Shown here in pieces: positions 3,398 to 29,207 of a stretch of 29,318 bases of DNA. The notes under the pieces are model-generated. The model was not told the DNA's origin, made no database searches, and saw only the letters and a program-made list of their open reading frames with translations. Numbering within the stretch: the stretch's first letter is position 1; each line of letters starts with the position of its first letter. Made by a program: the position numbers and the translations under genes. The DNA is taken from the NCBI GenBank assembly GCA_020057405.1, contig JAGVFW010000005.1, positions 1 to 29,318 on the forward strand. Reading direction: 5' to 3'. This DNA is from an archaeon. GTDB lineage: Archaea > Micrarchaeota > Micrarchaeia > Norongarragalinales > UBA97.

Positions 3398-3403
3398 AGT
3401 CAA

Positions 3404-5557
3404 ATGGCGCGAAAGTCCCCAGAGCCGCAGTCGCTTTATTCCGGCATCGAGCTGCCAAAGCGAAAGCCCGATAAGCCGGTTGTCCAGACTGAGCCGCCGT
3501 GGGTTCTTCTTACCAACCGCCTGTCACGGAACTTCCGCTCGCTTGGCAAGAAGGCCAGTTTTTCCGAAGGCCAGCAGCAGGCCATTGATTTTCTCCAATG
3601 GCGCGTGTCGCCCGAGGACGTCTACGGCATTTACAAGGGCGTGATTTTCACCGCAGTCGGTGCGGGTGTTGTCTTCGCCCTCATGCTCTACCTGTTCTCC
3701 GGCCCCCTTTTCTCCAACCTCATTTCCTACGGCGAGTACATCATCCCGCTTGTCTGCGGCACCTTCATCGCCCTCGCCGGCTTTGGGCTCGCCTACTTCT
3801 ACATTTCCTACCCTGGCCAAGTTGCCGACGCAGAGCGCAAGCAGGCGATTGCCTACATTCCGGAAATAGTCAACTACTTAGTCATGAACATGCGCCTCAC
3901 GCCGAATCTTGAGCGCGCGGTTGAGTTTGCAGCAAGCCACGGCCGCGGAAAAATCGCCGAAGACTTGCGAAAGCTCGTTTGGGACACTCAAATCGGCGTC
4001 TACAATTCCATCGAGGAAGGCCTTGACGACCTGGCCTACCGATGGGGCAACTACAACGACGACTTCAAGCACGCCCTCATGCTCATCCGCGCCAGCGTGC
4101 TTGAGGGGGACGAGCAGAAGCGCTCGGACTTGCTTGAAAAAGCCAGCAACGACGTCATCGAGGGGAGCAAGGAGAAGATGGACGTCTACGCCCGCCAGCT
4201 TCACCAGCCGACGGTTTACCTCTATTATTTCGGCATCCTCCTGCCGCTCATGCTGGCAATCGTCCTTCCAATCGCCAGCGGCATCGTCAAGGGCCTGCCG
4301 CTGACGGGCCTGCTGCCGTTCGTGCTCATTTACAACGTCTTTCTTCCCGCCGTGCTCCTCATCATGTCCCAAGGCATCATCAACGGCCGGCCGCCGACCT
4401 ACGTCCCGCCCGACATTCCCGAAGACTTTCCCGACCTGCCCAAAAAAGGCACGTTTATGGTCGGCCGCATGCGCGTGCCCTACGTTCCCCTCGCGCTCCT
4501 AGTGTTCTTTTCCTGCATCGCAGCCGGCTTTTTCCTTGACGGCCTGCAGCTTGACGCAGTCAGGGCCAACCTCGTTTACTCGAATCCCGAGGAATCGATT
4601 TCGGCCTTGCCCCACGTCACTATCGCCCTCCCGTTTCTAGGCTCGTTCCGCGTCTTTCTTTTCATGGTCTTCGGCCTCCTAATCGGCTTTTCCCTTGCCC
4701 TGTCAATCTACCTCTACGGAAAGTATTCCGCTCGAAAGAAAGTGCAGGATGAAATCCGGGAGATGGAGAACGAGTTTAAGGACGCCCTCTATGTCCTCGC
4801 ATCCCGGCTTGGCGAGAACCGGCCAATGGAGGACGCGTTGCGCTCGTCAATAGAGTTTTTGCCCAAAAGCGCGGTGGCCCACAAGATTTTCCGCCGCGTG
4901 CTTGACAACATCACCCAGCTTGGAATGACAATCGACGCCGCGATTTTCGACTCCAACTACGGCGCCGTCCGTGACGTGCCAAGCGAGACCATCCGCGGTG
5001 GCATGCGCATCCTCGTCGACAGCGTGCAGCTCGGCGTCAACGTCGCGGCCATCTCGCTAATCAACCTCGCAATGCAAATCCGCAACGCGCAGAAAATCGA
5101 CACCATGCTGAGGCGGCTGCTTGAAGACGTCACGACAATGCTTAAGACGATGGGCACCTTCATCGCGCCAATCGTCCTTGCCGTCGTAACCAGCCTCCAG
5201 CGCGTCATCCTCACTTCGCTAACGAGCAACTGCGGCGACCAAAGCGCGGGTGCGGTTGCCAATGGGGCGACAAGCGTTCCCGGAGTCAGCGGCTCGCTAG
5301 GCGGTTCCGGCATCTCGTCCGTCTTCTGCAACATCGACCCCAAGTCTGCAGTCTCGCCAGGCGAGTTTACCCTCGTGATGGGCATTTACGTCATCCAGGT
5401 CGTCATCCTCCTCACTTACTTCAACGCGCAAATCGAGGACTCCAACAACAAGCTTCACACGATGATGAGCGTGGCCATGGCCGTTCCCGTCGCGGCCATT
5501 CTCTTTAGCATTGTCGCCTACTTCGCCTCCACTTTCCTCTCCGGCGCCTCCGGCTAA
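3404..5557 (+). CDS. Pilus assembly membrane platform protein (TadB/TadC/ArlJ-like, two T2SSF-type halves)
   Basis: 717 aa with multiple TM segments separated by two soluble helical domains ('IPEIVNYLVMNMRLTPNLERAV', 'FKDALYVLASRLGENRPMEDAL'). Starts 6 nt after the ATPase stop. Confidence 0.85.
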   Translation: MARKSPEPQSLYSGIELPKRKPDKPVVQTEPPWVLLTNRLSRNFRSLGKKASFSEGQQQAIDFLQWRVSPEDVYGIYKGVIFTAVGAGVVFALMLYLFSGPLFSNLISYGEYIIPLVCGTFIALAGFGLAYFYISYPGQVADAERKQAIAYIPEIVNYLVMNMRLTPNLERAVEFAASHGRGKIAEDLRKLVWDTQIGVYNSIEEGLDDLAYRWGNYNDDFKHALMLIRASVLEGDEQKRSDLLEKASNDVIEGSKEKMDVYARQLHQPTVYLYYFGILLPLMLAIVLPIASGIVKGLPLTGLLPFVLIYNVFLPAVLLIMSQGIINGRPPTYVPPDIPEDFPDLPKKGTFMVGRMRVPYVPLALLVFFSCIAAGFFLDGLQLDAVRANLVYSNPEESISALPHVTIALPFLGSFRVFLFMVFGLLIGFSLALSIYLYGKYSARKKVQDEIREMENEFKDALYVLASRLGENRPMEDALRSSIEFLPKSAVAHKIFRRVLDNITQLGMTIDAAIFDSNYGAVRDVPSETIRGGMRILVDSVQLGVNVAAISLINLAMQIRNAQKIDTMLRRLLEDVTTMLKTMGTFIAPIVLAVVTSLQRVILTSLTSNCGDQSAGAVANGATSVPGVSGSLGGSGISSVFCNIDPKSAVSPGEFTLVMGIYVIQVVILLTYFNAQIEDSNNKLHTMMSVAMAVPVAAILFSIVAYFASTFLSGASG

Positions 5558-5562
5558 AAAGC

Positions 5563-5604
5563 TTTAAAAACAGCCTCTCTGTAATGGTTGCACCAACAAG
5601 GTGA
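5563..5604 (+). promoter_or_regulatory. TATA box plus Shine-Dalgarno for the probable major pilin
   Basis: TTTAAAAA at 5563-5570 and AAGGTGA at 5598-5604, 7 nt before ATG 5612. Confidence 0.65.
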
Positions 5605-5611
5605 TTTCCCA

Positions 5612-6079
5612 ATGCGTCGTGGCCAAGCCTTTGAGACAATGATGCTCGTAATCAGCGTAATCGTAGCGCTCGCCATCTTGGCGGTGCTCATGAACATCAT
5701 CGGCGGCATTACCGGCATTGGCCAGGGCCAGCCTGACAAGATTATGCACGATGCCCTCAAAGAAATGGTTCAGAAGGGATACGGCTACTCGCAGCCCCAA
5801 GAAGCAGTCATAAAGAAGGCGACAATCATCGACTCAAAGCAAGTGGTAGGCACGGACAACCCCGGATTGAACCCCTTAGAAGTCCAGTTCTTGATTACCG
5901 GCATCACTGCCCTTGAATTGCCTCGCACGCCGAATAAGATAGGCCCGGCATCCACCGACATCAAGCTTTTCATAGTCGTTTGCGGAGACGCAACCAAGGG
6001 CGAACAAGGCAAGTACCGCATCTCAATCGCCAAATCAGCAATCGCTGCGAGCAACGGCTGCGTAATTCCGACCACTTGA
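5612..6079 (+). CDS. Class III signal peptide protein, candidate major pilin (155 aa)
   Basis: MRRG|QAFETMMLVISVIVALAILAVLMNII: basic leader, RG cleavage site, hydrophobic helix. Start moved from the track's 5588 to ATG 5612 because of the SD. One C-terminal Cys pair. Confidence 0.85.
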   Translation: MRRGQAFETMMLVISVIVALAILAVLMNIIGGITGIGQGQPDKIMHDALKEMVQKGYGYSQPQEAVIKKATIIDSKQVVGTDNPGLNPLEVQFLITGITALELPRTPNKIGPASTDIKLFIVVCGDATKGEQGKYRISIAKSAIAASNGCVIPTT

Positions 6080-6119
6080 GTCGGCACGCTTTTATTCCTC
6101 CTTTTCCCACCTAGTGGTC

Positions 6120-6284
6120 ATGAAGCGCGGCGACTGGACTCCCATTTACATGCTGCTAGTCGTCATCATCGCGGCAATCATCATCATCGCGCTGATTAAG
6201 CCCGTCTTTAGCGGCGCGGCCCAGACTGCCGGCTCGAACTTGGGTGCCGCGCGCGGCCTCGCCGGCGGAATGCTTTTCCGCTAG
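6120..6284 (+). CDS. 54-aa Flp-like mini-pilin with class III signal peptide (absent from ORF track)
   Basis: Hand translation MKRG|DWTPIYMLLVVIIAAIIIIALIKPVFSGAAQTAGSNLGAARGLAGGMLFR*. Fills the gap between pilin genes; CTTTTAT lies 24 nt upstream. Confidence 0.85.
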   Translation: MKRGDWTPIYMLLVVIIAAIIIIALIKPVFSGAAQTAGSNLGAARGLAGGMLFR

Positions 6285-6319
6285 CCGACTGTTTTTAATC
6301 CCGTTGCGCTAAGCGTTGC

Positions 6320-7018
6320 ATGCAACGCGGGCAGGCTTCGTGGGGTGTGATGGAAATCCTAATCGCCACCATCATCCTCGGTATGAGTCTGGGTGTCGTC
6401 TTTTATTCTCTTAAGAATGTCGAGGAAATTCGCTGCGTTATAACGCTGAAAGCGAGTATGACCCATTTGCAGAATTCCTTTTGGAAGGTGGCTATGCACG
6501 GTTCTCCCTCCACTGACCGTGTAACCTTAACAATGCCTTCGTGCGGTGACAAGTCGGTTGAGGCCGTGCGTTTCGTCTACTACAAGCAGAAAGAGCTCTG
6601 CCGGTCGTGTCCCGGCCAATACGCCGGGTGCTGGGTAATCGAACCGACTGTTTACGATTATTCTCTCAAGAAATTCTATCGCCTTAACGATGCGTCAGTG
6701 TGCGTGCAAAACAACATGCCATACATTTCACTCACTACCGTCACTACCGGCAAGTGCCTTGGCAATCAGATTTCTAACGAGCCCTGCCCGAACACGGTTC
6801 CCGGCTGCAGAAATGATGTGGAAGGCGGCGTGCCGGAGAACGTTTTCAAGGGGAACGCCAACGGCGACGGGGCGGCAAGCGATTCTAATTCCATTTGGAG
6901 CACTTTTGGCCGCAAGCCGGGCGACCCGCGCACTTTCGTCTTCGAGTTGTCAAAGTCAGTCGAACCGAGCCTTTCAAGCAGCGTACAGATTTGCCCGTTG
7001 ATAGAGTCGGATGATTGA
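6320..7018 (+). CDS. Cys-rich minor pilin-like protein, paralog A
   Basis: MQRG|QASWGVMEILIATIILGMSLGVVFYSL, followed by a Cys-rich extracellular domain. Confidence 0.85.
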   Translation: MQRGQASWGVMEILIATIILGMSLGVVFYSLKNVEEIRCVITLKASMTHLQNSFWKVAMHGSPSTDRVTLTMPSCGDKSVEAVRFVYYKQKELCRSCPGQYAGCWVIEPTVYDYSLKKFYRLNDASVCVQNNMPYISLTTVTTGKCLGNQISNEPCPNTVPGCRNDVEGGVPENVFKGNANGDGAASDSNSIWSTFGRKPGDPRTFVFELSKSVEPSLSSSVQICPLIESDD

Positions 7019-7020
7019 AC

Positions 7021-7043
7021 GGGTTCTTTCGGTGGGAGAACTC
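7021..7043 (+). terminator. Small stem-loop after pilin paralog A
   Basis: GGGTTCTTTC-GGT-GGGAGAACTC pairs over 10 bp using three G-U pairs and is followed by a pyrimidine-rich tract. Confidence 0.3.
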
Positions 7044-7094
7044 CATTTTCCACTTCCATCTGCTTTTATTTACCGCAGCGCTTAAGGTAACACC

Positions 7095-7772
7095 GTGAAT
7101 CGTGCTCAAGCTTCGTGGGGTGTGATGGAAATCCTAATCGCCACCATAATCCTTGGCATGAGCATGGGCGTAGTTTTCTTCTCCCTAAAGAACATCGAGG
7201 AGACGCGCTGCATTGCAGACTTGAAGGGCAGCACTGTCGCACTTCAGAACGCCATGCTCGTCGTCGCCTTTGGAAGCCCTCCGACGACTAAGCGCGTGGC
7301 ATTTAAGATGCCCACCTGCGGGGACAAGTCGGTTGAGGCAGTGCGTTTCGTCTACTACAAGCAGCGCGAGCTCTGCAGGTTGTGTCCGGGCCAGTACGAG
7401 GGATGCTGGGTAATCGAGCCGACAGTCTATGACTTCGTGCAAAAGAAGCTCTACCGGCTTGAGGACGCCGCGGTGTGCGTGCAGATGCCTGCGGACATTT
7501 CAATCGAGGCGGTCATAAGTCCCGAGTGCCTGGGCAGCCAGATGACTGACACGCCGTGCCCCCAGAACTTGCCTGACGGGACCACTTGCAAAATCAAGGA
7601 GACCGCGGGTTTCGCGTCCCCCATTTATGACCCTATCTCCACCCGGTCCGCTTCCGTTTGGCAGACTTTTGGCCGCAAGCAGGGCGACCCCCGCACTTTC
7701 ATTTTCGAACTGTCAAAGGCGGTGACGCCTGGCCTTAGCGGCAGCATCCGGGTCTGCCCAATGGTGAAGTAG
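7095..7772 (+). CDS. Cys-rich minor pilin-like protein, paralog B
   Basis: GTG start; MNRA|QASWGVMEILIATIILGMSMGVVFFSL. Colinear with 6320..7018 (shared CGDKSVEAVRFVYYKQ, CPGQY.GCWVIEPTVYD, TFGRK.GDPRTF.FELSK). Confidence 0.85.
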   Translation: MNRAQASWGVMEILIATIILGMSMGVVFFSLKNIEETRCIADLKGSTVALQNAMLVVAFGSPPTTKRVAFKMPTCGDKSVEAVRFVYYKQRELCRLCPGQYEGCWVIEPTVYDFVQKKLYRLEDAAVCVQMPADISIEAVISPECLGSQMTDTPCPQNLPDGTTCKIKETAGFASPIYDPISTRSASVWQTFGRKQGDPRTFIFELSKAVTPGLSGSIRVCPMVK

Positions 7773-7786
7773 GGGATGAGTGGGCA

Positions 7787-8479
7787 GTGAGGCGCGGCGA
7801 CACTGCAATGTGGGTGCTCACCAAGATGGCGATGCTTTTCTTCATCGCATCGCTTGCGGGCGTGCTCTTGATTTTCGGCGGCTACCAGCAGACGGGCTTG
7901 TGCAACGAGGAGGCCCGCGCAATTAGCGACCGGGTCTCAAGCGGCCTTTCCCAAGTGATTAACTCCCCCGTTGAGGACGAGCGGCGCATCATACAACTAG
8001 AGCCCGCGCTTTCCGTGGGTGACGGCAAGAGCGCCCGCTACACTCTAAACATCACCCGCCGCATCACCGACCGGCCGGAGTTCAACACTCTTTTAATCAG
8101 CGCCTACTCGGATGCCAACCGGGGCTGCAACTCGGGCGTTCAAGTAACCTACAACAAGCGCTGGGACGATGCTAACGACAAGCGCCTGTTTTTCATGCCC
8201 GCAACATCCTCGCCGCCTCGTTATTACCGCGGCGCGTTTGAGACAATGGCACTGCGGCCGTCGGTGCTCAACCCGGCAGTTCAGGGCCCGCGCTCGACTT
8301 TCGTGGCCTTAGTCAAGTGCACGCAAAAGAATGTCGGCAGGAAAGTCTACGTCTTCATCCAGGACTGCACGCAGCAGGACGCGAAGCTCTGCATCGGCTT
8401 CTCTTCCAACAAGCAAGGCGAAAACGCTCCCGGCAGCATCGAGTCGCTTTGCGGTTTTGAGGTGACTCCAACGCCATGA
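7787..8479 (+). CDS. Minor pilin-like protein (class III signal peptide)
   Basis: MRRG|DTAMWVLTKMAMLFFIASLAGVLLIFG; six Cys in the extracellular domain; ATGA overlap with the next gene. Confidence 0.8.
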   Translation: MRRGDTAMWVLTKMAMLFFIASLAGVLLIFGGYQQTGLCNEEARAISDRVSSGLSQVINSPVEDERRIIQLEPALSVGDGKSARYTLNITRRITDRPEFNTLLISAYSDANRGCNSGVQVTYNKRWDDANDKRLFFMPATSSPPRYYRGAFETMALRPSVLNPAVQGPRSTFVALVKCTQKNVGRKVYVFIQDCTQQDAKLCIGFSSNKQGENAPGSIESLCGFEVTPTP

Positions 8480-9066
8480 GGGGAGCAATTGGCCCGATTG
8501 GCGATGACATTCCAAGCATCTTCCCAATCGTCGCGGGAGTGCTCTTGTTCATGTCAACGGCGCTTTACGCAAGCAACCAGCTTTCCGAGCGCAACAGTTA
8601 TCTCGAGCTTTCAAAGGCGGGAATTGGCTTAAGCTACGTCGTCCTTAGCTCGCCTTACATGCGGGACGATTTTTTCAAGGGAGAGTGCACGCAGACTTAC
8701 CGCGATTACGCCGCCCGCAGGCGCGTTGACTTTCTAATCACGGTGAAGAAGTTCTGCCACTACACGGACTTAAACGGCGACATTTTTTCTGTCAAGAACC
8801 CCTACCCGCCGCATCTTTCGCTTGACACTGGAGTGTATGCCGGCGATGGCGGCTACCATCACCTGGGCCTTGCTTGCGGCAGTGACTCTACCAACTGGAA
8901 CGCCGCCCAGGCCCCGTGCGCGGGCGGGGTTTGCAATCTTCTCTTGACTGGCAAGCAGCCCAAAAACTTCCAGTCGTTTAACTTCCCGATTGCGGTTGAC
9001 TGCGGCAAGCAAGAGCCGTTTGTGGGCGTTGGCACGCTTAACATCATCGTTTGGAGGGGCGGATGA
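8476..9066 (+). CDS. Minor pilin-like protein (atypical class III signal peptide)
   Basis: MRG|AIGPIGDDIPSIFPIVAGVLLFMSTALYA; Cys pairs; C-terminal beta-strand 'GTLNIIVWR'; translationally coupled on both sides. Confidence 0.75.
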   Translation: MRGAIGPIGDDIPSIFPIVAGVLLFMSTALYASNQLSERNSYLELSKAGIGLSYVVLSSPYMRDDFFKGECTQTYRDYAARRRVDFLITVKKFCHYTDLNGDIFSVKNPYPPHLSLDTGVYAGDGGYHHLGLACGSDSTNWNAAQAPCAGGVCNLLLTGKQPKNFQSFNFPIAVDCGKQEPFVGVGTLNIIVWRGG

Positions 9067-10004
9067 TGGAAAAAGCGGTCAGGACGGGACGGGAAATGAC
9101 TCGAGGCCAAGCGGCGCTCTTTGACGGCATCATGTTTCTCTTGTTCGCCAGCTTTTCAGTCGCGATGATTTACGTTTTCGTCAACGACTACGGGAAAGCG
9201 CAGGACGAGGCCCTTCGAAGCGGCTACATCCTCGCCTACGTCCAGCAGGCGGGCAAAGTTATTTTCTTCACGCAGGTAAAGACGCTAAAGGACGTGGCAA
9301 ACCCTGTTGGCCTGCCTAACGCGGGGCTTGAAGGGTGCTGGAAGGACCCCGAGTTTCCCTACGCCGCAGCCAGTTGTATTCCCGGGACTGTCGCACGCGG
9401 ATATCCGTACAGTGACTTGGCCGACCCGCTCAAGGGCTGCGCTTCGCTATCAAAATTCGACTTATCGACAGTTTCCGACTTGCTCAAGAAGGACTTGGGC
9501 GACGGGACTGACGAGTCGTTCTCGTGCCTTGACGACCAGTTCGGCAATCCCTCCAGCCAGTCTCCCGGGACTACGCAATTCTGCACAGTGCACGACAATG
9601 CCGGCTGGCGTGACATCCCGCGCGTTCCGGGCAAGATGGCCCTTCGGTGTGTGATGAAGGAGCTCATGAAGCCACTGCAGACCGCCGGGTTCAAGTATTT
9701 CGCCGACTTCGAGCGCGAACAGTCTGCCGGCTCAAGCATTCCGCAAAAAATCTTCAACATCAACGACCCCGACAGCTTCCGCATCACCAACCACTGGGAG
9801 GCGGACGAGGGTAACTGGTATTCGTGCGACAACGTCACTTCAAAGACCCCGCCAAGCCTCGAATATCCTTTCGGTGGCGGTGGCATCGACAACGTGCTCT
9901 CGACGAGCCTGCCGTTTCGCGTGAACAAGGGCAACACTCTAGACGAGACGATGAACTTCGTGCTCCGCGTGTGCATCTGGTCAACTAAAGTCAGCAACAG
10001 GTAA
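9063..10004 (+). CDS. Cys-rich minor pilin-like protein (class III signal peptide)
   Basis: TRG|QAALFDGIMFLLFASFSVAMIYVFV. Start is ATG 9063 (ATGA overlap with upstream stop) or ATG 9096. Ends with beta-strand 'FVLRVCIWS'. Confidence 0.8.
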   Translation: MMEKAVRTGREMTRGQAALFDGIMFLLFASFSVAMIYVFVNDYGKAQDEALRSGYILAYVQQAGKVIFFTQVKTLKDVANPVGLPNAGLEGCWKDPEFPYAAASCIPGTVARGYPYSDLADPLKGCASLSKFDLSTVSDLLKKDLGDGTDESFSCLDDQFGNPSSQSPGTTQFCTVHDNAGWRDIPRVPGKMALRCVMKELMKPLQTAGFKYFADFEREQSAGSSIPQKIFNINDPDSFRITNHWEADEGNWYSCDNVTSKTPPSLEYPFGGGGIDNVLSTSLPFRVNKGNTLDETMNFVLRVCIWSTKVSNR

Positions 10005-12346: not shown

Positions 12347-15300
12347 ATGCGCAAGGCCTTCCTTAGCTCCGACAAGCCGTTTGCAGCACTAGTATTCGCC
12401 GTCCTTGCCCTCCAGCTCTTCTCGCCATTCGCTTTCGCCCAGTCAACGCCGGGCCCCGAGCTTAACCCGACCGTCGGGCCGGAAGCGACGCCGACCCCGA
12501 ATCCCGCAACTGTTTCACCTTCAGCAACCCCGTCAGGGGCTGCCTCTTCGGCAACGCCTGTCCCCGAGCCCTCAAACATCGGCATCTGCACGATAAGCGA
12601 GTTTACGCTCGAAGAATGGAACAAGTTCAGGCAGGCGACGTTTAACTTCAACGGAAAGGAAGTCACCGACAAGAGCGACGCGAAGCTTCGCAGCCAGACG
12701 CCCGGCCAGAATGTCATCGTCAACAACTACAATTTCCCGGCCGAGGACAGCGTGGCTTACATACCTGTTGTCGATGTCGCAAAGTTCTTTCCGGGCCGCA
12801 GCGTCGAGGACGTCGCTGGTGACTTGGGCGTTGCGCCAAACGAGAGCGTGACTATTGCGCAGGTCGCATCAGTCACAGCATCCGACCCCAAGGGTGCTAA
12901 CATCATCGCGCAACTTCGCCAGGCCGTGAAGGGCAAGGGTTCGGCAAACCTCGCGCCGGGCTTTGAGTCGCTTAAGGTGACTCTGCCAAACGGCAGGACT
13001 GTTGCAATGTCGGAACTCTACAAGCTTCAGCAAATCCGCGCGGGCGAAGGGCAGCCCAACGCGTGCCTCATCGACAACGCCGCTTTCAGAGGCCGCCTTG
13101 AATACACTGCGCTTATGAAACAGGACTTGCTAATCGGCGCCGACAGCTCGGGCGCGACGCTTAATCATTCGGCTTGCGAGAGCCGCGAGTGCTCTCACAT
13201 TACCACCGACAGCGTGCGCGCGGCGGTCAACAACTTCGAGGGCAACTTCGTCATCCAGAGCTTCTACGAAAAGGCGATATCTGAAATCGGCGGTTGGTTC
13301 GCGTGGGACTTCCTTTCCTCGGGCGTCCTCGCAATCTATTCCGCAAGCGACCTGAACCTCGCGACGAAGAACATCAAGAGCACCGAAAAATACGTTGACG
13401 ACATCAACAAGATGGGCTTTGAGAAGACGATTTCGCAGGAACTCGTGAACAAGGGAGAGACGAGTGTCGAGGCAAGCGCACTCCGCCGCGAGTTTTCCTC
13501 AAAATTCGGTTCATCCATAGTAGGTAAGGAGCAAAACCTCGACATGCCGCAGGTTGTTGGCAACAAGCTCAAGAGCATTCTTGGAAAAGTGCCTGCCGGG
13601 ACTGGGGATGAGGCGAAACTTGCGATGGAGAAGGCACTAGCGCAATATGATTCGGAAATAGCCGCGCTAAACATCCCTGCACTAGAGTCTGCCTTGAAAG
13701 CAGCCGCAACCGATGGCGATTCCGAGACCAAGCTGAAAATCATTTCAAAGCAACTGGACTTGGCTAACGCGCAACGGGCCGAGATTTTGGGTGAAAAAAA
13801 CGGAATGGTATCGATGGACGCCGCCCTTGGAAAGTATTCCGACATTCTTGTTGCTGACGGCGCCGGCAAGCTCGACGTTGACGCGTCCTACGAGGGCCTT
13901 TTCCAGAAGTACAAGGCAATGGGAAAGCGCGAGGACCAGGTGAACTTTCTCGCTGAGCTTGGCGTCATCAGCGACGACCAGGCGCGCTTGGCAATCTATC
14001 GCGGCAAGCTCGACGGCATTGACCAGCGTTCGTCTTACTGGAATAGCGAGGCTGCGAAAGCCGAGCGGTTCGCCAACTTCGGCGCCCGCCGCGCTTGGCA
14101 GAACGTTCTCATCGGCCTGACTTGGCTCGGTCCCGGCAGGCTTGGCCTCGAACTAGCCGGCCAGATTGTGATGACTTCGGCGACAAAGCCGGACGCCACC
14201 CGCGGCGACTACTTACTCGTCTACATCAACAACGGCGATTTCCTAAACACCTTCCGCCACAGCACGGACTTTTTTGGAATGGGCCGCTTCCTTGAGACGC
14301 TAAGCGAAGTGACGCCGTTCACCGCTCCCTACAAAGCTTACGTCACGAGTCCCATGTACGCCTTCCAGACAATGGGCACCACGACGCAGGAAACAGGTTC
14401 CCTAACTTCGCTAACTCAGACCGACGGCGGCTGGCAGATGCTGACTCAATGGAAGGGCGATTCCGACCTCACACTAGTCGAGGACGTGCGCGACGGCAAG
14501 ACCTGGACGAGCACGGCGTTTAAGACAAACTACCTGCGCTTCAGCGCCGCACTGCAGAAAAAGCCCGCGCTTAGGCAATACCACAACATCCTCCTAAGCA
14601 TCGGTCCCATCCTCAGCTGGACTGTCCTTAAGGTAAGCAACATGCCCCAAGGAATTGTCACCCTCGTTCAACTGCAGCTTTTGGAGTTCTACATTGACAA
14701 CATCGTAGACCCCAACTCTTTTAGCCCCGACGAAGTCTGCTCGCAGGACAAGCTTGACGGCTACCTAAGGATGTACAAGTGGATGGTGGTGTTGAGCAAC
14801 GTCGAGCAGGTCGCGCTCTATTCCGACATCGGCACGTGGGCGGGCCGCGGGCTAACTGCAATGATAGCCGCGCGCGACTGGACTTCAATCTCGAAAGGAA
14901 GCAAATTTATTTCCAAGGGCCTAGGGATTTACCGCAAAGTCCAGGTTGCCGACCCGATAGAGTGGGCCAAGGCCTCCTACGGCCACTTGGCGCTTGAGTA
15001 TTCGCTTTCCTGCAAGGACCCGAGCTACAAAGTAGTTGCCTACCAGAAGATTCCCGAGGCGAGCCAGAAGGCAAGCGCCGTTACCGCAATCAAGAAGAAA
15101 GTTTCCGACCCGCTTGGGATTGACAAGATTACAAACGGCCTTAACGTCGGCGAGGCTTTCAAGGGCATCGGCCAGACTGCAACTCAAGCAGACTTGAAGG
15201 AGATTCTAAACCTCAAGTCGCTTGAGAAGAACCAGAATGGCTTGCTAAAGCCCGCTGACATCAACTACATCCACCTCTACCCCGAGGGTGCCGACATGCA

Positions 15301-17362
15301 GTGGTGGGGCGTTTTCGAGAACCAGTGCTTCAGAAACTGCATGCAGCAATCCGATGGCACTTTCGTGTGCGCTGACGGCAACGGCGTTTACCTAGAGCGC
15401 AATGGAACCCGCATTGACTTGGCCGACCGCGAGCGCGCACTCATGAGCGACTTTCTCCCGTCTCTTGGCTTAGTAGTGCCTAACAAGATTATCACCGCGC
15501 CGCTTGACTGCAGCCCCGACTCGGCGGTTCTCGAGGCGCGAAGCGACGCGACGCTTAACGTGATTGACGGCGGCTGCCCTGCAACCGACTGCGCAATGAA
15601 GTCGCTCGTGCGCGTGAGCGGCAAGAACGTGGGCAATGACTTGAGTGAAGTCATGGGGCCCGTCGAAGTCATCTACACGACCCAAGGCATTGCCTCCCGC
15701 TACAACAACGAGTACCGCTTCATGCGCACAAAGGGCGTAAGGACGCAGGAGTTAAGCACGATACTCAAAGTTCCCATTCCCTTCACCAACCGCACTGAAG
15801 TTGACTTGAACAAGAATGGCGCTACCGGCAGCAACCAAAAGAGCCTCGCCGGCACCGAAGAGCGCTACCGCACGGTGCAAATCATGGGCGACGGCCGCGT
15901 GCGTTCCGACAGCGAACTGGGCGAGCTTCTCACAATCCAGATGCAGAATGGCGTGATTCACTTTGACCGCGCGACGCGCAAGCTCTACGTGCTGATAAAA
16001 ATCCTTGCCATGGCCCCCGGCCGAGACATCACCGGCATCTCGGCCGCACCCGCCACAGTCGCCGGCCCCAAGGCCGACCTTGACAAATTAGCCCGCGACC
16101 TAGACTCGCTAAAGGCGGCCCTCGCCTCGGGCCAACAATTAAACGCCGCCCAACTTGAGCTGCTAAAGTCGATTCTTGAGAAGGGCGCGCCGACGGGCCA
16201 GCTTCTAAACAAGGAAGAGCGCGACAAGCTTGCCGCCATTCTAGACAAGCAGTCAAAGGGCATTTCCCTAAACCAAGCCGAATCGGACTTGCTTAAGAAG
16301 GCACAGTCGGAAGACAAGTTCCCCGGCGTAATCGTGCTTCCGCCCGAAAAGACGCAGACGATTGAAAAGACGCTCAAGGAGCAGGGTGTCGACCCGACTC
16401 TAGTAAAGCAAATCATCGACAAGCTCACCGCAGGCACTCCTCTCTCCGCTGCGGACAAGGCTGCCGCCCAGGACGCCCTAGACAAGTCAGCGGCCGCGGG
16501 CAAGCTCTCCGCCGACCAGGCTTCGACGCTAAAGGCCGACCTTGAGAAGACCATATCGGCTGCCAGCCGCGCTAACGAGATTGCCAACGCTGCCGCTCTC
16601 GACAAGCTTACTGCCGAACAGAAGGCGCTTGCGATAAAGGTTGCCCAAGACGAGGCTGACGCCGCGCGAGCCAGGGCAAAAACCGCTTCAGACAACCCGA
16701 CTCCGGCAATCAAGCTTGGTGGCGTCACCGCAAAAGTGGGCGCAGAGCAGTCCGCGCAAGACTTAAACCGCGCGCTTGAGAAGGTCGGTGGCTTTACGGA
16801 CCTCTCGACTGAGAAAACTGCGCTCCAGTTCGCCACCAACGCCAATGGCGAGTCTGTGCTGCGCACTGCAGACAAGGCAACTGGCGCAACCCAGGAGCTT
16901 AAAATCACTGGCGCGCCCACCCGGGATGGCAATGCCGTTGTCATCCCGACTGACAAGGGGCTGGTGAAGATTGACGTTAATGTGAACAAGGACAACGGCG
17001 CCCCCGTTGTCAACATCAATGGTGCGGGCTTGCGCGATTCCTCGGCACTCATTTTAGCCCAAGGCCCCGGCGGCATGCTGTTCTTTGACCCCAAGACGGG
17101 CACTTGGCAAGTGCGAAACGGCGCTGCAATCGGCGCCGACGGTGCGTTTGGCACCAATGGCATTAGTTACTATGGCAGTCCCGACGGCACGCGCGGCCTG
17201 CCCCAGCAAGGCGCTCTTGGCTATAACCAAATCCTTGGCTCCTCAAGCGGCAACAACCCGCTTTTGGCCCTCCCAAGCTGGCCGGAGCAACCGCCCTTGG
17301 CTGCCGCAATGCTTGCGCTAGTATTGCTTGGAGTGCTTGCGGTTCGATTCAGGCGCAATTAG
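12347..17362 (+). CDS. Very large secreted, C-terminally membrane-anchored protein of unknown function (1671 aa)
   Basis: Sec-type signal peptide ending AFA|Q, Pro/Thr linker, Cys pairs, helical repeats, C-terminal TM helix plus RFRRN. CTTTTAAA lies 24 nt upstream. Confidence 0.9.
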   Translation: MRKAFLSSDKPFAALVFAVLALQLFSPFAFAQSTPGPELNPTVGPEATPTPNPATVSPSATPSGAASSATPVPEPSNIGICTISEFTLEEWNKFRQATFNFNGKEVTDKSDAKLRSQTPGQNVIVNNYNFPAEDSVAYIPVVDVAKFFPGRSVEDVAGDLGVAPNESVTIAQVASVTASDPKGANIIAQLRQAVKGKGSANLAPGFESLKVTLPNGRTVAMSELYKLQQIRAGEGQPNACLIDNAAFRGRLEYTALMKQDLLIGADSSGATLNHSACESRECSHITTDSVRAAVNNFEGNFVIQSFYEKAISEIGGWFAWDFLSSGVLAIYSASDLNLATKNIKSTEKYVDDINKMGFEKTISQELVNKGETSVEASALRREFSSKFGSSIVGKEQNLDMPQVVGNKLKSILGKVPAGTGDEAKLAMEKALAQYDSEIAALNIPALESALKAAATDGDSETKLKIISKQLDLANAQRAEILGEKNGMVSMDAALGKYSDILVADGAGKLDVDASYEGLFQKYKAMGKREDQVNFLAELGVISDDQARLAIYRGKLDGIDQRSSYWNSEAAKAERFANFGARRAWQNVLIGLTWLGPGRLGLELAGQIVMTSATKPDATRGDYLLVYINNGDFLNTFRHSTDFFGMGRFLETLSEVTPFTAPYKAYVTSPMYAFQTMGTTTQETGSLTSLTQTDGGWQMLTQWKGDSDLTLVEDVRDGKTWTSTAFKTNYLRFSAALQKKPALRQYHNILLSIGPILSWTVLKVSNMPQGIVTLVQLQLLEFYIDNIVDPNSFSPDEVCSQDKLDGYLRMYKWMVVLSNVEQVALYSDIGTWAGRGLTAMIAARDWTSISKGSKFISKGLGIYRKVQVADPIEWAKASYGHLALEYSLSCKDPSYKVVAYQKIPEASQKASAVTAIKKKVSDPLGIDKITNGLNVGEAFKGIGQTATQADLKEILNLKSLEKNQNGLLKPADINYIHLYPEGADMQWWGVFENQCFRNCMQQSDGTFVCADGNGVYLERNGTRIDLADRERALMSDFLPSLGLVVPNKIITAPLDCSPDSAVLEARSDATLNVIDGGCPATDCAMKSLVRVSGKNVGNDLSEVMGPVEVIYTTQGIASRYNNEYRFMRTKGVRTQELSTILKVPIPFTNRTEVDLNKNGATGSNQKSLAGTEERYRTVQIMGDGRVRSDSELGELLTIQMQNGVIHFDRATRKLYVLIKILAMAPGRDITGISAAPATVAGPKADLDKLARDLDSLKAALASGQQLNAAQLELLKSILEKGAPTGQLLNKEERDKLAAILDKQSKGISLNQAESDLLKKAQSEDKFPGVIVLPPEKTQTIEKTLKEQGVDPTLVKQIIDKLTAGTPLSAADKAAAQDALDKSAAAGKLSADQASTLKADLEKTISAASRANEIANAAALDKLTAEQKALAIKVAQDEADAARARAKTASDNPTPAIKLGGVTAKVGAEQSAQDLNRALEKVGGFTDLSTEKTALQFATNANGESVLRTADKATGATQELKITGAPTRDGNAVVIPTDKGLVKIDVNVNKDNGAPVVNINGAGLRDSSALILAQGPGGMLFFDPKTGTWQVRNGAAIGADGAFGTNGISYYGSPDGTRGLPQQGALGYNQILGSSSGNNPLLALPSWPEQPPLAAAMLALVLLGVLAVRFRRN
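16121..16640 (+). repeat. About six degenerate helical peptide repeats in the giant protein
   Basis: GQQLNAAQLELLKSILEK / GQLLNKEERDKLAAILDK / GISLNQAESDLLKK / GTPLSAADKAAAQDALDK / GKLSADQASTLKADLEK / DKLTAEQKALAIK. Confidence 0.7.
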
Positions 17363-25067: not shown

Positions 25068-25113
25068 CCCCGCCAGCAAAAGCTTTAATGCAGGGGGGAG
25101 GCAAACGCATATC

Positions 25114-25785
25114 GTGAGACTTGCTTTCGCCCTCGGGCTGTTTGCATTGCTTTTCTTTTCATTTGCTAGCGCCGCCTCTTTACCCGGCAGCTATCTTGTT
25201 CTTGTGTCCGGAGATTGCTCTTCTGACCCTGCAAAGTGCGTTGGGTTGACCGGCACGGGTTCCAGCCCGCAATTATCTAGTCATATTGCGTCAAACACGC
25301 CTTTGGGCAGCACTGACTTGCGGGGCCCGCCAAGCATTTCACCAGCGACAATCCAGCGCGTTCTGGCGCAGGGTGGTTCTCCCGCGGCCTCCGAACCCGG
25401 TTTTGCCCAGTGCCTTTACGACGCAGGGAAACAATCCGGTATCGACCCGGCGTTTCCGCTCGCTTTCTTCAAGCGCGAGTCTAGTTTCGGCAGAGCGGGT
25501 ATAGCAAAATCGACTAAGGGCATTGGAAACGTCAAAGGTTCTGGTTCCGCAGGAAGCTACAAGGGCTTTCGTGCCTACTCTACTTGGTGTCAGGGTGCGA
25601 AGGATTGGTTCGGGCTTATTTCCGGCAGCAAGTATTACTTCGGGGGCAGTCACTTTACGCTAGAGCAAATACTTCCGATTTACGCCCCGACGAGCGACAA
25701 TAACGTCTTGTACGGAAACGGCGGCTACATTAACGGCGTGGCGGGACTTGTCTCGTCATGGCGCAACAGCGAGAGATATGCCTAA
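25114..25785 (+). CDS. Secreted lysozyme-fold glucosaminidase (GH73-like), putative peptidoglycan hydrolase
   Basis: Signal peptide ending ASA; 'LYDAGKQSGIDPAFPLAFFKRESSFG' with putative catalytic Glu in ES; 'FRAYSTWCQG'; 'TLEQILPIYAPTSD' equivalent to the YATD motif. Confidence 0.8.
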   Translation: MRLAFALGLFALLFFSFASAASLPGSYLVLVSGDCSSDPAKCVGLTGTGSSPQLSSHIASNTPLGSTDLRGPPSISPATIQRVLAQGGSPAASEPGFAQCLYDAGKQSGIDPAFPLAFFKRESSFGRAGIAKSTKGIGNVKGSGSAGSYKGFRAYSTWCQGAKDWFGLISGSKYYFGGSHFTLEQILPIYAPTSDNNVLYGNGGYINGVAGLVSSWRNSERYA

Positions 25786-25821
25786 GCCCGCGGGTGTTGA
25801 CTAATTAGCGCTTTTGATTTT

Positions 25822-26454
25822 TTACGCATAGGTGGGCGCCGCAGTTCTTCGCACGCGCCTGTAGCCCGAAAAGTGTCCGCCTGCAACGCCTAACGAGCCG
25901 TCGCAGTTGTTGCTTTGCTTGACTATTCCCGCGCTGCTGCTTGCTGCAATGAATTTGCCGCAGGGAATGCCGTTGACCGAGCGAGTGGCCTGCAGGAATA
26001 TTCCGACGTGGGTAACGGTTCCAGGCGGCTTGGCGGGATTGGTGCCTTTCCAACAGAGCAGGTCGCCGGGCTGCGGAATTTCAACTTTATCTGAGAATCT
26101 TGAATCGCATTGTTCTGCCGCAGTTCTCGGAAGTGCCACGCCGTAAGCTTGTTTTACGAGCGCCTTGGTGAAACCCGAGCAGTCGGTCAACCCGGAAATT
26201 CCTCCCTCCGGAAGGAATGTAACATCGTTTGAGCCGTAGCCGTAGCGCACCTGGCCGCCCAGTGATTTGATTGCGTTTTGCGCAAGCAGGTTGTTTGAGT
26301 CGTAGTTGCCGTTGGTAATGTAACTGTCGATTCCGGCCGCCCTTACGCACGCGTTAGGGTCGGGGCACGCGCCTTCGAGCATAGTAACGTAGCTTTCGGC
26401 GTACGCTAGGCTGGAGAGAACGAGCACTGCGGCGACGATGGCGAATGCCTTCAC
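25822..26454 (-). CDS. Secreted NlpC/P60 (C40) cysteine peptidase, putative peptidoglycan endopeptidase
   Basis: Signal peptide ending AYA; Y.YG, DCSGF, 'YGVALPRTAAEQ', 'QPGDLL', 'HVGIF', 'FIAASSSAGI', 'GYRRV'. Confidence 0.92.
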   Translation of the reverse strand: MKAFAIVAAVLVLSSLAYAESYVTMLEGACPDPNACVRAAGIDSYITNGNYDSNNLLAQNAIKSLGGQVRYGYGSNDVTFLPEGGISGLTDCSGFTKALVKQAYGVALPRTAAEQCDSRFSDKVEIPQPGDLLCWKGTNPAKPPGTVTHVGIFLQATRSVNGIPCGKFIAASSSAGIVKQSNNCDGSLGVAGGHFSGYRRVRRTAAPTYA

Positions 26455-26492
26455 GCAAACACTTTACCCTCGGCGGGATAAAAGACTTGGCT

Positions 26493-27077
26493 TCAGGGTT
26501 TTCTTAGGAAGCTCAAAAACAACGTGTGCATCAGGCCCTTGGTCTCCGGCCGCGTGCCTTGCGGGCGCACGAGCCACTCGCGGGGCATGACGTCAATCGT
26601 GCGCTCGTGGACAAAGCCGAGTTCCTCGCCCTTTAGCACGAAAGTCTTGACTTGCTCGACGTTTGGCAGAAACGCGACGCAGGCGCCCTTCTTCTTTAGC
26701 GCATTTAGGGCGTGCGGCAAGGCGTTTTCTGCATTCGCCAGGTCAAGAAAGACTGCGTCGAGCTCGGTCTCGTCAATGCCGTCGAAGATGCTTTTTTGCT
26801 TGAATTCGATTATCGAGTCAAGGCCGGCCTTCACGCCGTTCTTCTTTGAAAGCAAATGAAAGTCCTCGCGCCACTCGTAAGAATAGACTTTCCCTGCCGG
26901 GCCGACGATGGTTGCGAGGTAGATTGCAAGCCAGCCGCTTCCGCTGCCTGCGTCAAGCACCCTGTCGCCATTGGCAACTCCCGCAAACGCCGAGGCGTAG
27001 GCCGCGTCCTTTAGGAGGACGACCTGCGGGCCGCGGGATAGTTTCTTGAAAAAGTCCGGTGTTCGCATGCTAATCAC
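26493..27077 (-). CDS. trmI: tRNA (adenine-N1)-methyltransferase TrmI-like, short form
   Basis: 'RGPQVVLLKD', SAM motif VLDAGSGSG, 'GKVYSYE', 'DAVFLDL', 'PNVEQV', 'TRP....MHT.FL'. Start GTG 27077 or ATG 27068. Confidence 0.85.
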   Translation of the reverse strand: MISMRTPDFFKKLSRGPQVVLLKDAAYASAFAGVANGDRVLDAGSGSGWLAIYLATIVGPAGKVYSYEWREDFHLLSKKNGVKAGLDSIIEFKQKSIFDGIDETELDAVFLDLANAENALPHALNALKKKGACVAFLPNVEQVKTFVLKGEELGFVHERTIDVMPREWLVRPQGTRPETKGLMHTLFLSFLRKP

Positions 27078-27107: not shown

Positions 27108-27824
27108 TTAGTGCGTCGACCAGAATGCGTAGTAGACGCTAGGCGAGCTGCCTTGGCTATAGCCGTACGAGTAGTACGTGTAGGGCGAGTAGCCGTAGCT
27201 TCCGCACCCGTAGGAGCAGCCGCTTCCGTATCCGCTGCCATAGTTGTAGCCGCTTGAGCCGTAGCCCGAGTAGCCGTTGCCATAGCCGCTTCCGTAGCTG
27301 TTGTACGAGTTAGAGTTGTAGTCGCCGTAGTAGTTGGTGTTGTACGAGTCGCGGATGTAGGTGTTGCCGCCGGACCCGCTGCCGCTTGAGGACGAGATTG
27401 CGCCATAGCTGTAACCCGAGCTGCCGTAAGCGCCGTAGCCCGAGTTGGCTGAACCAGACCCGTAAGTGCCGTAGCCGCGTGAGCCGTAGACGCTCTCGTA
27501 GGCTGCATAGCCGTTGTAGTACTGGTTGTTGTAAGTATAGCCCGTGTCGCGGGGTGCGGTGTCGTAAGCGTGGTAGTTGCCGTTGGAGTCATACCAATTG
27601 GTGTACTTGCTATACGGGTTTGAGTACTGCGAGGCGTAGGGGTTAGTGTTACGCCACTGGAGCGCCTGCTGGTTGTAGTAACTATTAATGTAAACGCAGT
27701 CGCCGGCAGACTGGCTGTAGGTTGCGTATCCGCTGCACGCGCGGCTGTCGACCGCGTTGGCAAAGCCCGCTGCGGCTGCAAGAACGATGACGAGGATCAA
27801 TCCATAAGTCAGGTAACGCAACAT
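27108..27824 (-). CDS. Secreted Tyr/Gly/Ser/Asn-rich low-complexity protein
   Basis: Signal peptide ending ANA; AAGGTGG SD before ATG; about 50 Tyr in 238 aa by hand count. Confidence 0.8.
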   Translation of the reverse strand: MLRYLTYGLILVIVLAAAAGFANAVDSRACSGYATYSQSAGDCVYINSYYNQQALQWRNTNPYASQYSNPYSKYTNWYDSNGNYHAYDTAPRDTGYTYNNQYYNGYAAYESVYGSRGYGTYGSGSANSGYGAYGSSGYSYGAISSSSGSGSGGNTYIRDSYNTNYYGDYNSNSYNSYGSGYGNGYSGYGSSGYNYGSGYGSGCSYGCGSYGYSPYTYYSYGYSQGSSPSVYYAFWSTH

Positions 27825-27944: not shown

Positions 27945-28016
27945 GCCCCGGTGGCGCAGTGGTAGCGCGATTGCCTTGTAAGCAATAGGTCGAGGGTTCA
28001 ACTCCCTCCCGGGGCT
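27945..28016 (+). tRNA. tRNA-Thr(TGT)
   Basis: Acceptor GCCCCGG/CCGGGGC+T, D arm GCGC/GCGC, anticodon arm ATTGC CT TGT AA GCAAT, T arm GAGGG TTCAACT CCCTC. Confidence 0.95.
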
Positions 28017-28699
28017 CTTGATGTAATCTGACGGTACGCATCAATTTTCTTCAAATGCTTCTGGTTCGAGAATCCGATGAGGCTCATCCATTTGTCCAGC
28101 TGGTCTTCGTTGTAGATTACTATTTCGTAGATTTGATGTATTCCGTTCTTTTTCTTCGCAGCATAGATTGAGAAGTATTTTTCTAGGATTTCTTTCAATT
28201 GGAGAAAAAGCGGCTCGCTTGCTATCCTGAGCGTTATTCGTGGATATGGTTTTCGGTAAATCTTGCGATTATCGACGAAAAAATTTCCATCCGTGTCAAA
28301 AATGCCTCGGATTGAGGCAAAAACGAGTTTTTCTCCTCCATTAATGATTTCCGGAGGAATTGAAACGGTGTAAGTTTTGTTTCCCGGAATAAACCCGAGC
28401 CTTTCGGTCAAAAACCCGAAGATTCGCTTTGAACAGATGTTTAAAATCATTGTTCGAGAATCACGCAGCAATATCGTCGGCTTCTTTTGGAATGTTGTTT
28501 CGAGTATCTTGACTAGATATTCTGTAAGATAGTCGTCGTCCAGTTCAGCGTTACCGGTAATGAAAACATGATATTTGGAGTTTCCGCGAACGTCAAGATA
28601 TCCATCAATGGAGCCGTCTCCGATAACTGCCCCTACGAATTCGCATAAGTCTTCCGTTAAGGGCATATCTTCCGTAAGTTCGGCCGTCTGCTTGAGCAT
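27998..28699 (-). CDS. Free-standing double-motif LAGLIDADG homing endonuclease-like protein
   Basis: Motifs FVGAVIGDG and IRGIFDTDG; C-terminal 'IGFSN.KH'; visibly more AT-rich than the flanks; no intein or intron host gene. Confidence 0.88.
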   Translation of the reverse strand: MLKQTAELTEDMPLTEDLCEFVGAVIGDGSIDGYLDVRGNSKYHVFITGNAELDDDYLTEYLVKILETTFQKKPTILLRDSRTMILNICSKRIFGFLTERLGFIPGNKTYTVSIPPEIINGGEKLVFASIRGIFDTDGNFFVDNRKIYRKPYPRITLRIASEPLFLQLKEILEKYFSIYAAKKKNGIHQIYEIVIYNEDQLDKWMSLIGFSNQKHLKKIDAYRQITSRAPGGS

Positions 28700-28790
28700 A
28701 ACAAAATAGGTGTTTTGTAGGGGATCGCTCGTTTCGGGAGGGTGGCTTGCCGGGATGCTATAATATAATTATGGCCAGCGTGACTCTTGT

Positions 28791-29207
28791 ATGCCAGATT
28801 TGAGTGAGAAGATTTCAAAGGAGCTTGCCACCAAGTACGGTTACGTGCCAGGCGAGGCAAAGCAGGTCCTGACGTTTGTCAAAGGCATCCACAACTTCTC
28901 GCACTACTTGGGCAACAACAAGTACTTCAGCGACACTTTGAACAAGCGCGTTGCTGTTCTCTCGCTTGACTGCGACATCCTGTCCCTTAAGGCAGAGCGC
29001 GTGCGCCTCCTTGCTGAAGGCTTCTACACTCAGGTGGAACTTTCGATTGTTGCCAAATCCAAGCCTGCGATTGACAAGGCCAAGGTTGTTGCCTTCAAAA
29101 AAGAGATGCAGGCGGTTCTTGACGAGGCGATGTCAATCAACGACCGCGCCCTAAAGCTCATGGCTGACATCAAGGAAGAGTACGGCGAAAAGGACGGGGC
29201 AAAGTAG
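28791..29207 (+). CDS. Hypothetical alpha-helical protein (138 aa)
   Basis: ORF with genome-typical codon usage; TATAATATAA element upstream at about 28758-28767. Confidence 0.7.
   Translation: MPDLSEKISKELATKYGYVPGEAKQVLTFVKGIHNFSHYLGNNKYFSDTLNKRVAVLSLDCDILSLKAERVRLLAEGFYTQVELSIVAKSKPAIDKAKVVAFKKEMQAVLDEAMSINDRALKLMADIKEEYGEKDGAK

Follow-up and report, generated by a model that had tools for sequence, protein, structure and literature searches.

A convergent gene pair for predicted exported GH73-like and NlpC/P60 wall hydrolases in a Micrarchaeota genome

The stretch of DNA considered here (the window) is the entire contig C8, 29,318 bp long, of a Micrarchaeota genome (G000) that comprises 1.22 Mb in 17 contigs and is estimated to be 90.6% complete and 0.27% contaminated. 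It carries two adjacent, convergent genes, ORF1 and ORF2, that encode a GH73-like glycosidase domain and an NlpC/P60 peptidase domain behind export-type N-termini. The reading that we prefer, with rather more belief than doubt, is that these are native Micrarchaeota genes whose products form a Sec-exported pair that would cleave bacterial peptidoglycan (murein) at a site of contact. The family and fold of the two proteins, their catalytic residues and export-type N-termini, the native composition of the genes, and their conservation and fusion in relatives are established by the analyses described below.

Gene pair, predicted export signals and domain assignments

The pair had been picked out by an earlier sequence-only reading of the window, and it lies exactly where that reading had placed it. 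The features of the locus are as follows.

25114..25785, + strand: ORF1, 223 aa, GTG start; predicted signal peptide (residues 1-20), Cys35-Cys42 loop, low-complexity linker and divergent GH73-type domain
25315..25782, + strand: GH73-like catalytic domain of ORF1, residues 68-223, placed by alignment A1, the FlgJ profile match, an AlphaFold2 (AF2) model and Foldseek
25822..26454, - strand: ORF2, 210 aa, GTG start; predicted signal peptide (residues 1-19), Cys30-Cys36 loop and NlpC/P60 domain
25786..25821, no strand: 36 bp that separate the stop codons of the convergent pair; the + strand is T-rich over part of this spacer
25085..25090, + strand: TATA-like hexamer TTTAAT, 23 nt ahead of the ORF1 start codon, beginning at -29
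26478..26483, - strand: TATA-like hexamer TTTTAT, 23 nt ahead of the ORF2 start codon, beginning at -29

The two hexamers had been described as archaeal-style TATA boxes, and the description holds, their position relative to both start codons being typical of this genome. In a survey of the 1271 G000 ORFs of at least 150 codons, hexamer hits at the six positions from -32 to -27 numbered 16, 23, 29, 24, 24 and 17 (133 in total), compared with a background of about 5 per position at -60 to -40. Because of this genome-wide peak, the spacing seen here represents the norm for leaderless genes in G000 rather than a chance match; and since both ORF1 and ORF2 bear the signal of leaderless transcription, the upstream GTG codons are likely to be their true starts.

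Read off the sequence, the N-terminus of ORF1 consists of MR, a 15-residue hydrophobic core and ASA ahead of the A that would begin the mature protein, and that of ORF2 consists of MK, a hydrophobic core of about 15 residues and AYA ahead of E. The N-termini of homologues from six related genomes (G006, G003, G005, G020, G258 and G292), read in the same way, are alike. Both proteins apparently bear Sec-type export signals, a prediction that agrees with the signal peptides proposed earlier. In the public gene call (P0001, 160 aa), ORF1 is started from a TTG inside the reading frame, which cuts off the signal peptide; the database homologues P0002 and P0003 (154 aa each) start at the same point. 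Gene calls shortened in the manner of P0001 conceal the signal peptide.

At the mature N-terminus of each protein lies a Cys-x6/7-Cys loop (C35/C42 in ORF1, positions 25216-25239; C30/C36 in ORF2, positions 26347-26367), which may be a sorting or anchoring module common to both enzymes. The GH73-like and NlpC/P60 proteins of G006 (L004 875-2142) share a near-identical stretch of about 17 residues at this loop (C-F-S-D-S-Y-N-G-V-C-I...), and motifs resembling C-x-D-S-S-[FY]-x-G-V-C also occur in the NlpC/P60 proteins of G003 and G005 and in P0020. The motif is absent from the proteins of family f11.

ORF1 is placed as a far-flung member of a divergent GH73 subfamily in which the predicted catalytic Glu is kept. 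The placement rests on a profile match, the predicted fold and the protein's relatives, its own score against the Pfam Glucosaminidase model being below threshold. A phmmer search of the PDB with ORF1 returned no hits; a family profile made from A1, an alignment of seven archaeal homologues, matched five FlgJ GH73 structure entries there (E 6.4e-4 to 8.8e-3). In the profile alignment, Glu122 of ORF1 aligns with the Glu of the FlgJ 'LE(S/T)GWG' motif, and it is invariant in all seven sequences of A1. We take the Glu at this position to be the catalytic general acid of GH73 enzymes, and the title of 3k3t, a Foldseek match described as an 'E185A mutant', fits with that Glu being catalytic. Also present in ORF1 are Tyr205 and, at residues 189-192, a conserved 'IYAP' motif.

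The AF2 model of residues 68-223 (pLDDT 83.7, pTM 0.83) predicts that ORF1 has the lysozyme-like GH73 fold. Its top Foldseek match, LytB (E 8e-4, TMq 0.71), is the single match with E <= 1e-3 and is followed by Auto, FlgJ, AtlA and AtlE; most of the top matches are GH73 enzymes. The modelled domain shares its fold and its Glu motif with the bacterial GH73 enzymes (LytB 7pj3, Auto 3fi7, FlgJ 2zyc/5dn4, AtlA 7qfu, AtlE 4pi7), but it is only 12-18% identical to them in sequence, is about 20 residues shorter at the FlgJ hairpin, and belongs to a distinct subfamily.

The relatives of ORF1 point in the same direction. A profile search covering 1.84 billion representative proteins returned 2609 family members at E <= 1e-3, 1303 at E <= 1e-10 and 249 at E <= 1e-30. 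A Pfam scan took in 127 of the best 149 representatives, and 102 of these match Pfam Glucosaminidase at E <= 1e-3 (best 3.4e-14); the G006 orthologue of ORF1 scores 29.6 bits against the same model. The sequence-only reading had called ORF1 GH73-like and had named this Pfam model as the check; the direct Pfam match does not bear the claim out, whereas the profile, the fold and the relatives do. Among the PHROG families, ORF1 matched an endolysin family (4.5e-5) and a tail lysin family. Some of the family representatives hold multiple GH73-like stretches, two in P0010 (395 aa) and four in P0011 (935 aa).

ORF2 is clearly an NlpC/P60 peptidase by both Pfam and fold, as had been proposed. It scores 42.8 bits (E 5.8e-11) against PF00877, for which the cut-off is 23, and in a scan of its own genome the match falls at C8 25972-26247 with 43.9 bits (E 1.7e-11). 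Among solved structures its best sequence match is 4fdy, the next named is 7cfl, and 4hpe is eighth. Its AF2 model (pLDDT 77) has the papain-like NlpC/P60 fold, with 49 PDB matches at E <= 1e-3, and resembles the DL-endopeptidases: Acd24020, an autolysin of C. difficile (7cfl; E 4.8e-9, TMt 0.81), ranks first and is followed by MepS, LytE and CwlO, with SagA also among the matches. All 11 aligned sequences keep Cys92 (part of DCSGF) and His149 (part of HVG). The complementary bond types that the sequence-only reading had assigned to the pair, glycan backbone for ORF1 and stem peptide for ORF2, are as homology would predict.

Archaeal context, conserved neighbourhood and ancestry

The contig is archaeal and sound, and the gene pair is compositionally native to it. 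The LeuRS fragment at the start of C8 scores 231.8 bits against the archaeal equivalog and 58.9 against the bacterial one, a 754-aa secretion ATPase encoded in the window is best fitted by FlaI, and the 16S gene of G000 (on contig C11) scores 1417.9 bits with the archaeal model and 1089.8 with the bacterial model, all of which bear out the archaeal surroundings noted earlier. The tetranucleotide correlation of C8 with the remaining genome is 0.985 (range over all contigs 0.912-0.996). For the 1341-bp gene pair, compared with 300 random segments of the same length, tetranucleotide r is 0.794 (segments 0.780 +/- 0.143) and GC content is 0.558 (segments 0.557 +/- 0.030). A family scan of the window's proteins found no phage or plasmid genes between the housekeeping genes that flank the pair. 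A check for chimerism, which had been suggested as a possible source of error, gave no sign of it, the composition being native and the synteny being kept in relatives.

The synteny is anchored by the gene next to ORF2:

26493..27077, - strand: GCD14/TrmI-type tRNA methyltransferase (Pfam GCD14, 1e-23)

GCD14 also adjoins one or more hydrolase genes in G006, G020, G258 and G292, which brings the arrangement to five genomes in two families. In G006, GCD14, a GH73-like gene (218 aa, with a predicted signal peptide) and an NlpC/P60 gene (196 aa, likewise) follow one another on one strand. The cluster in G292, a member of the other family, also lies on one strand and runs from a giant protein (a homologue of one encoded in the window and described below) through GCD14 and NlpC/P60 (248 aa) to the GH73-like gene (294 aa), with intergenic gaps of 136, 32 and 24 nt along the way. 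In G020 and G258, GCD14 is followed by a GH73-like gene.

Elsewhere among the relatives, the domains are fused. An open reading frame of 935 aa in G005, open at its 5' end, holds M23, GH73-like, NlpC/P60 and Amidase_3 domains in that order, and its C-terminal part has a weak DPBB_1 match (E 0.026). Beside its PheRS genes, G002 encodes a membrane-anchored protein of 928 aa in which M23 is combined with a GH73-like domain at the C-terminus, and an 891-aa anchored M23 protein occupies the same PheRS-linked position in G000 (contig C6; L110 2129-4804). The C-terminal ~170 residues of the G000 protein differ from those of its G002 counterpart and are shared by an NlpC/P60 protein of G006:C33, as though the lytic end domain had been exchanged. 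These C-terminal 172 residues have no Pfam match and only chance-level PDB matches; an SLT-like identity was considered for them and found no support, there being no Pfam SLT match and nothing above chance level in the PDB. The tandem and fused arrangements together indicate, at the level of gene organization, that the two enzymes belong together functionally.

The distribution of these domains was surveyed at two scales. Among 41 genomes (G000 included), ORF2-like proteins occur in 6. M23 occurs in 18 of the 41 relatives, where the frames that carry it are often 2000-2900 residues long, whereas the four control archaea have none; G000 itself has two M23 matches, one in the 891-aa anchored protein and the other weak. 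Among 301 genomes sampled across the phylum, NlpC/P60 was found in at least 22 and the GH73-like domain in 5, all of the window's order, and these large-scan counts are lower bounds because the PF00877 scan missed G000's own match. In the 127 family representatives, the partner domains were Amidase_2 (6), M23 (5), PG_binding_1 (2), Amidase_3 (2) and CHAP (2).

It is useful to consider where such genes came from. The nearest named relatives of ORF1, L029 (55% identity) and L030 (44%), are both titled Candidatus Micrarchaeota archaeon, which places the lineage in this phylum of the DPANN archaea. A search of species-representative genomes with a closer alignment, A2, gave a best 80 loci of which 75 belong to Chloroflexota (42 Chloroflexia, 21 Ktedonobacteria and 12 unclassed); the remaining five comprise one unclassified bacterium and four with archaeal labels (two Micrarchaeota, one 'Diapherotrites' and one 'Methanosarcinales'). 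In a quick, unrooted maximum-likelihood tree of 84 rows and 145 columns, one branch (SH-aLRT 92, unstarred) splits 76 bacterial rows from 8 archaeal rows; the latter are not nested among the bacterial rows, and several lie on long branches. The unrooted tree leaves the direction of transfer unsettled, and a bacterial origin is the economical reading because the domain is rare in the archaeal phylum (the 5 of 301 genomes above) and common in Chloroflexota. The native composition of the pair and its synteny in two families argue that the genes were acquired long ago and have been retained.

Predicted substrate and role

On the reading preferred here, each gene would be transcribed from its own archaeal promoter into a leaderless mRNA, and both products would be exported by the Sec pathway. 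ORF1 would act as a trimmed GH73-type glycosidase that hydrolyses the N-acetylglucosamine-beta-1,4-N-acetylmuramic acid (GlcNAc-MurNAc) backbone with Glu122 as general acid, and ORF2 would be a cysteine peptidase that uses a Cys92/His149 dyad to cut the stem peptide, typically between gamma-D-Glu and the diamino acid. The two enzymes would work side by side at or near the archaeal surface, where their purpose would be local opening of the wall at contact with a bacterial partner or prey, not feeding on muropeptides. Breaching fits better than feeding because relatives carry these domains on anchored proteins and because G000, at 90.6% completeness, has neither an OppA/MppA-type binding protein nor NagB. 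Secretion, activity, bond specificity, the murein substrate and the bacterial target are in each case what we infer from sequence.

The substrate is most likely to be a bacterial wall because G000 shows no sign of making murein. A single Mur_ligase_M match was found, a count shared by two of the four control archaea; at 90.6% completeness there is no match to FtsW/RodA, and murein made by the archaeon itself was rejected on these grounds. Pfam scans of G000 likewise found no Amidase_3 and no SLT domain. Every partner domain seen with the two enzymes acts on or binds murein.

Several observations weigh against this reading. The score of ORF1 against Pfam Glucosaminidase (PF01832) is 15.1 bits (E 0.038), below the cut-off of 30.2. 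In the alignment of A1 to FlgJ, the archaeal family has a gap of about 20 residues at the hairpin region. The GH73 beta-hairpin bears a second catalytic carboxylate in some members of the family, and within this alignment, gapped as it is at the hairpin, no candidate for such a residue was found in ORF1. In ORF2 the third position of the catalytic triad is Ala170, a site at which the ten remaining sequences of the alignment carry His (8), Glu (1) or Asn (1); by the rule that a polar His, Glu, Asn or Asp should lie about 12-20 residues past the His, ORF2 is without the usual third residue, which counts against full activity, and the activity of its predicted Cys/His dyad may be reduced. The GH73-like domain is patchy, being found in 5 of the 41 genomes (G000 included) and in the 5 of 301 mentioned above. 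A family scan at E <= 0.1 detected no wall-binding domain in either protein, and G000, as far as it is complete, has no match to SBP_bac_5 (OppA/MppA-type) or to NagB. Finally, all cultivated DPANN have archaeal hosts (PMC11291902), and those of the cultured Micrarchaeota are Thermoplasmatales (PMC8975820).

A rival view is that the enzymes act on something other than murein: glycans or peptides of the archaeon's own envelope (for example, in remodelling about the giant surface protein), an archaeal host's envelope, or the pseudomurein of methanogens. Consistent with this, the hydrolase cluster adjoins the giant surface-protein gene or lies within 8 kb of it in G020, G292, G006 and the window, neither a wall-binding domain in the enzymes nor genes for muropeptide uptake turned up in the scans, the known Micrarchaeota hosts are archaea (PMC8975820), and the specificity of ORF1, without its hairpin region, could have shifted. 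However, the fusion partners are all murein-specific (M23, Amidase_3, Amidase_2, PG_binding and CHAP), the closest relatives are found in murein-making Chloroflexota, and the patchiness of the genes within the order is unlike that of a housekeeping envelope enzyme. We consider a non-murein substrate unlikely, though it is the alternative that deserves the most attention.

It is also conceivable that the exported enzymes digest free wall debris for its amino sugars and amino acids and leave living cells unattacked. Small soluble enzymes without binding domains would be expected to diffuse, and salvage of this kind is left open by a survey in which Opp/MppA genes are commoner in archaeal genomes that encode hydrolases (Strock et al. 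2025, PMC12352652). G000 has neither SBP_bac_5 nor NagB by domain match at its 90.6% completeness, however, and in relatives the domains sit on membrane-anchored proteins of about 930 residues, suggesting action at the cell surface. Scavenging of bacterial walls, which the sequence-only reading had offered alongside breaching, thus finds no support in the gene content of G000, and we rate it improbable.

A further alternative holds that the proteins are weakened relics, one or both of which now serve as murein-binding adhesins in the manner of RipD, a non-catalytic NlpC/P60 protein. The alanine at the third triad position and the missing hairpin region of ORF1 would suit such a role, and RipD does appear among the fold matches of ORF2 (ranks 47 and 50). 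Judging from the title of the structure entry, though, RipD-type proteins have lost their catalytic residues, whereas Cys92, His149 and Glu122 are all kept and are invariant across the archaeal homologues; we therefore give this possibility little credence.

Least probable by far is that the pair is foreign, whether as bacterial DNA that entered through mis-binning or chimeric assembly or as a mobile element's module for lysis or entry. The PHROG endolysin and tail lysin matches, the bacterial origin of the domain family and a low-GC stretch with a LAGLIDADG gene beside tRNA-Thr, 1.5 kb away, might suggest it. Contamination, chimerism and mobile-element origin are nevertheless rejected on the archaeal LeuRS and FlaI-type ATPase of the same contig, the native composition, the archaeal promoter spacing, the chromosomal GCD14 synteny that five genomes from two families share, and the finding that the interval bounded by the flanking housekeeping genes holds nothing of phage or plasmid type.

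Comparison of the murein-directed reading with known systems is informative. The existence of archaeal peptidoglycan hydrolases is already published, and the idea itself is not new. Strock et al. (PMC12352652) report modular peptidoglycan hydrolases in 175 of 3706 archaeal genomes, prominently in Nanoarchaeota, Thermoplasmatota and Halobacteriota, and show that two archaeal enzymes kill a bacterium. Their survey required a catalytic and a binding domain, both recognized by Pfam hidden Markov models (HMMs): Woldo combines M23 with PG_binding_1, Danwoldo combines Glucosaminidase (PF01832) with two PG_binding_1 domains, and Halogranum salarium is also represented. Those enzymes and the pair described here are alike in being exported (here by prediction) bacterial-type murein-cleaving domains in organisms without murein, with a patchy distribution and shuffled domains, one of them of the PF01832 type. 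They differ in that ORF1 and ORF2 have no wall-binding domain and ORF1 falls below the Pfam cut-off, and hence that survey would miss them; in that the N-termini here look Sec-type rather than Tat-type; and in that the lineage is Micrarchaeota rather than Halobacteria, with chromosomal genes that are syntenic in two families.

Large murein transglycosylase proteins have likewise been described from Woesearchaeota and Pacearchaeota (10.1101/2021.01.12.426361; PMC9723730) and from a few other DPANN metagenome-assembled genomes (PMC10634959). These giants resemble the present case in coming from DPANN and in having extracellular murein-cleaving domains, taken as a sign of bacterial hosts or prey, and the relatives of G000 also bear such domains on large anchored proteins. 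In contrast, theirs are GH23 transglycosylases, whereas GH73-like, NlpC/P60 and M23 domains from another phylum are involved here; the enzymes of the window are small and stand alone, and G000 has no Pfam SLT domain.

A pairing of glycosidase with NlpC/P60, as in the G005 fusion, is also found in proteins of the CwlT and Tn916 Orf14 type (4fdy, 4hpe). CwlT is a bifunctional wall hydrolase of conjugation elements. The window, in contrast, shows no conjugation genes and places the two activities on separate polypeptides. In what we saw of the literature, for most papers the title and the opening of the abstract, we found no description of GH73-like or NlpC/P60 genes in Micrarchaeota, although the supplementary tables of PMC12352652 may list some. 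The interest of the present case is moderate and lies in the phylum, in the conserved cluster with its fusions, and in its invisibility to standard domain surveys.

These observations invite a broader and more speculative proposal, which we put forward as doubtful. This order of Micrarchaeota may have kept a murein-cutting kit since before its two families split, the kit comprising GH73-like, NlpC/P60, M23 and sometimes Amidase_3 domains, some of them on anchored 'multi-lysins' of about 930 residues near the giant-protein gene, and its members may live on or prey on bacteria. The likeliest partners would be Chloroflexota, since this is the only bacterial phylum among the closest homologues (the best 80 loci). 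If true, this would link DPANN archaea with bacteria through a molecular tool that can be identified, and would do so in a phylum otherwise cultured on archaeal hosts that have no wall. Short of that, a Micrarchaeota order with a conserved kit of predicted exported enzymes offers a concrete and checkable hint that some of its species interact with bacteria instead, and the enzymes are small and easily expressed, so the claim is open to direct test. The pair also shows how domain-based surveys undercount archaeal wall hydrolases, given the sub-cut-off score of ORF1, its start-shortened gene call and the lack of binding domains.

Other genes in the window

Two further genes of the window recur near the hydrolases in relatives:

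12347..17362, + strand: giant protein, 1671 aa, with a signal-like N-terminal segment and a C-terminal membrane anchor
27108..27824, - strand: Ser/Tyr/Gly/Asn-rich protein, 238 aa, with a hydrophobic N-terminus

For the giant protein, Pfam, NCBIfam and Atlas gave no match; it may be the main surface (S-layer-like) protein of the order. Its homologues directly border the cluster of GCD14 and hydrolase genes in G020 and G292, and in G006 the distance is about 3.6 kb; the G020 homologue matches the protein of the window at E 2e-42 and has the same C-terminal anchor. Across the family, which also includes L018 7667-11806 and L112 1-1503, a C-terminal 'LPSWP', the transmembrane segment and an Arg-rich tail are conserved. 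The sequence-only reading had suggested that the hydrolases work together with this protein and with a pilus. For the giant protein, gene neighbourhood is consistent with that suggestion and may equally reflect mere conserved gene order; for the pilus, the suggestion finds no support, since no association between the pilus locus and the hydrolases was found in relatives.

The 238-aa protein matches no family, and its counterpart in G006 (L004 2901-3620) likewise lies beside GCD14. The region at 1133-10004 is probably an archaeal type IV pilus-like locus. Besides the 754-aa FlaI-like ATPase, it encodes a protein of 717 aa that weakly matches T2SSF and five further ORFs (163-317 aa) for which no family scored at E <= 0.01; one of the five has a weak, sub-threshold match to DUF3821. 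At the other end of the window, a LAGLIDADG-type ORF (27998-28699, - strand) overlaps the 3' end of tRNA-Thr(TGT) (27945-28017). The surrounding positions, 27945-29000, form the sole low-GC stretch of the contig (0.448, compared with about 0.56), and this stretch with its LAGLIDADG ORF may be an inserted element or a homing endonuclease.

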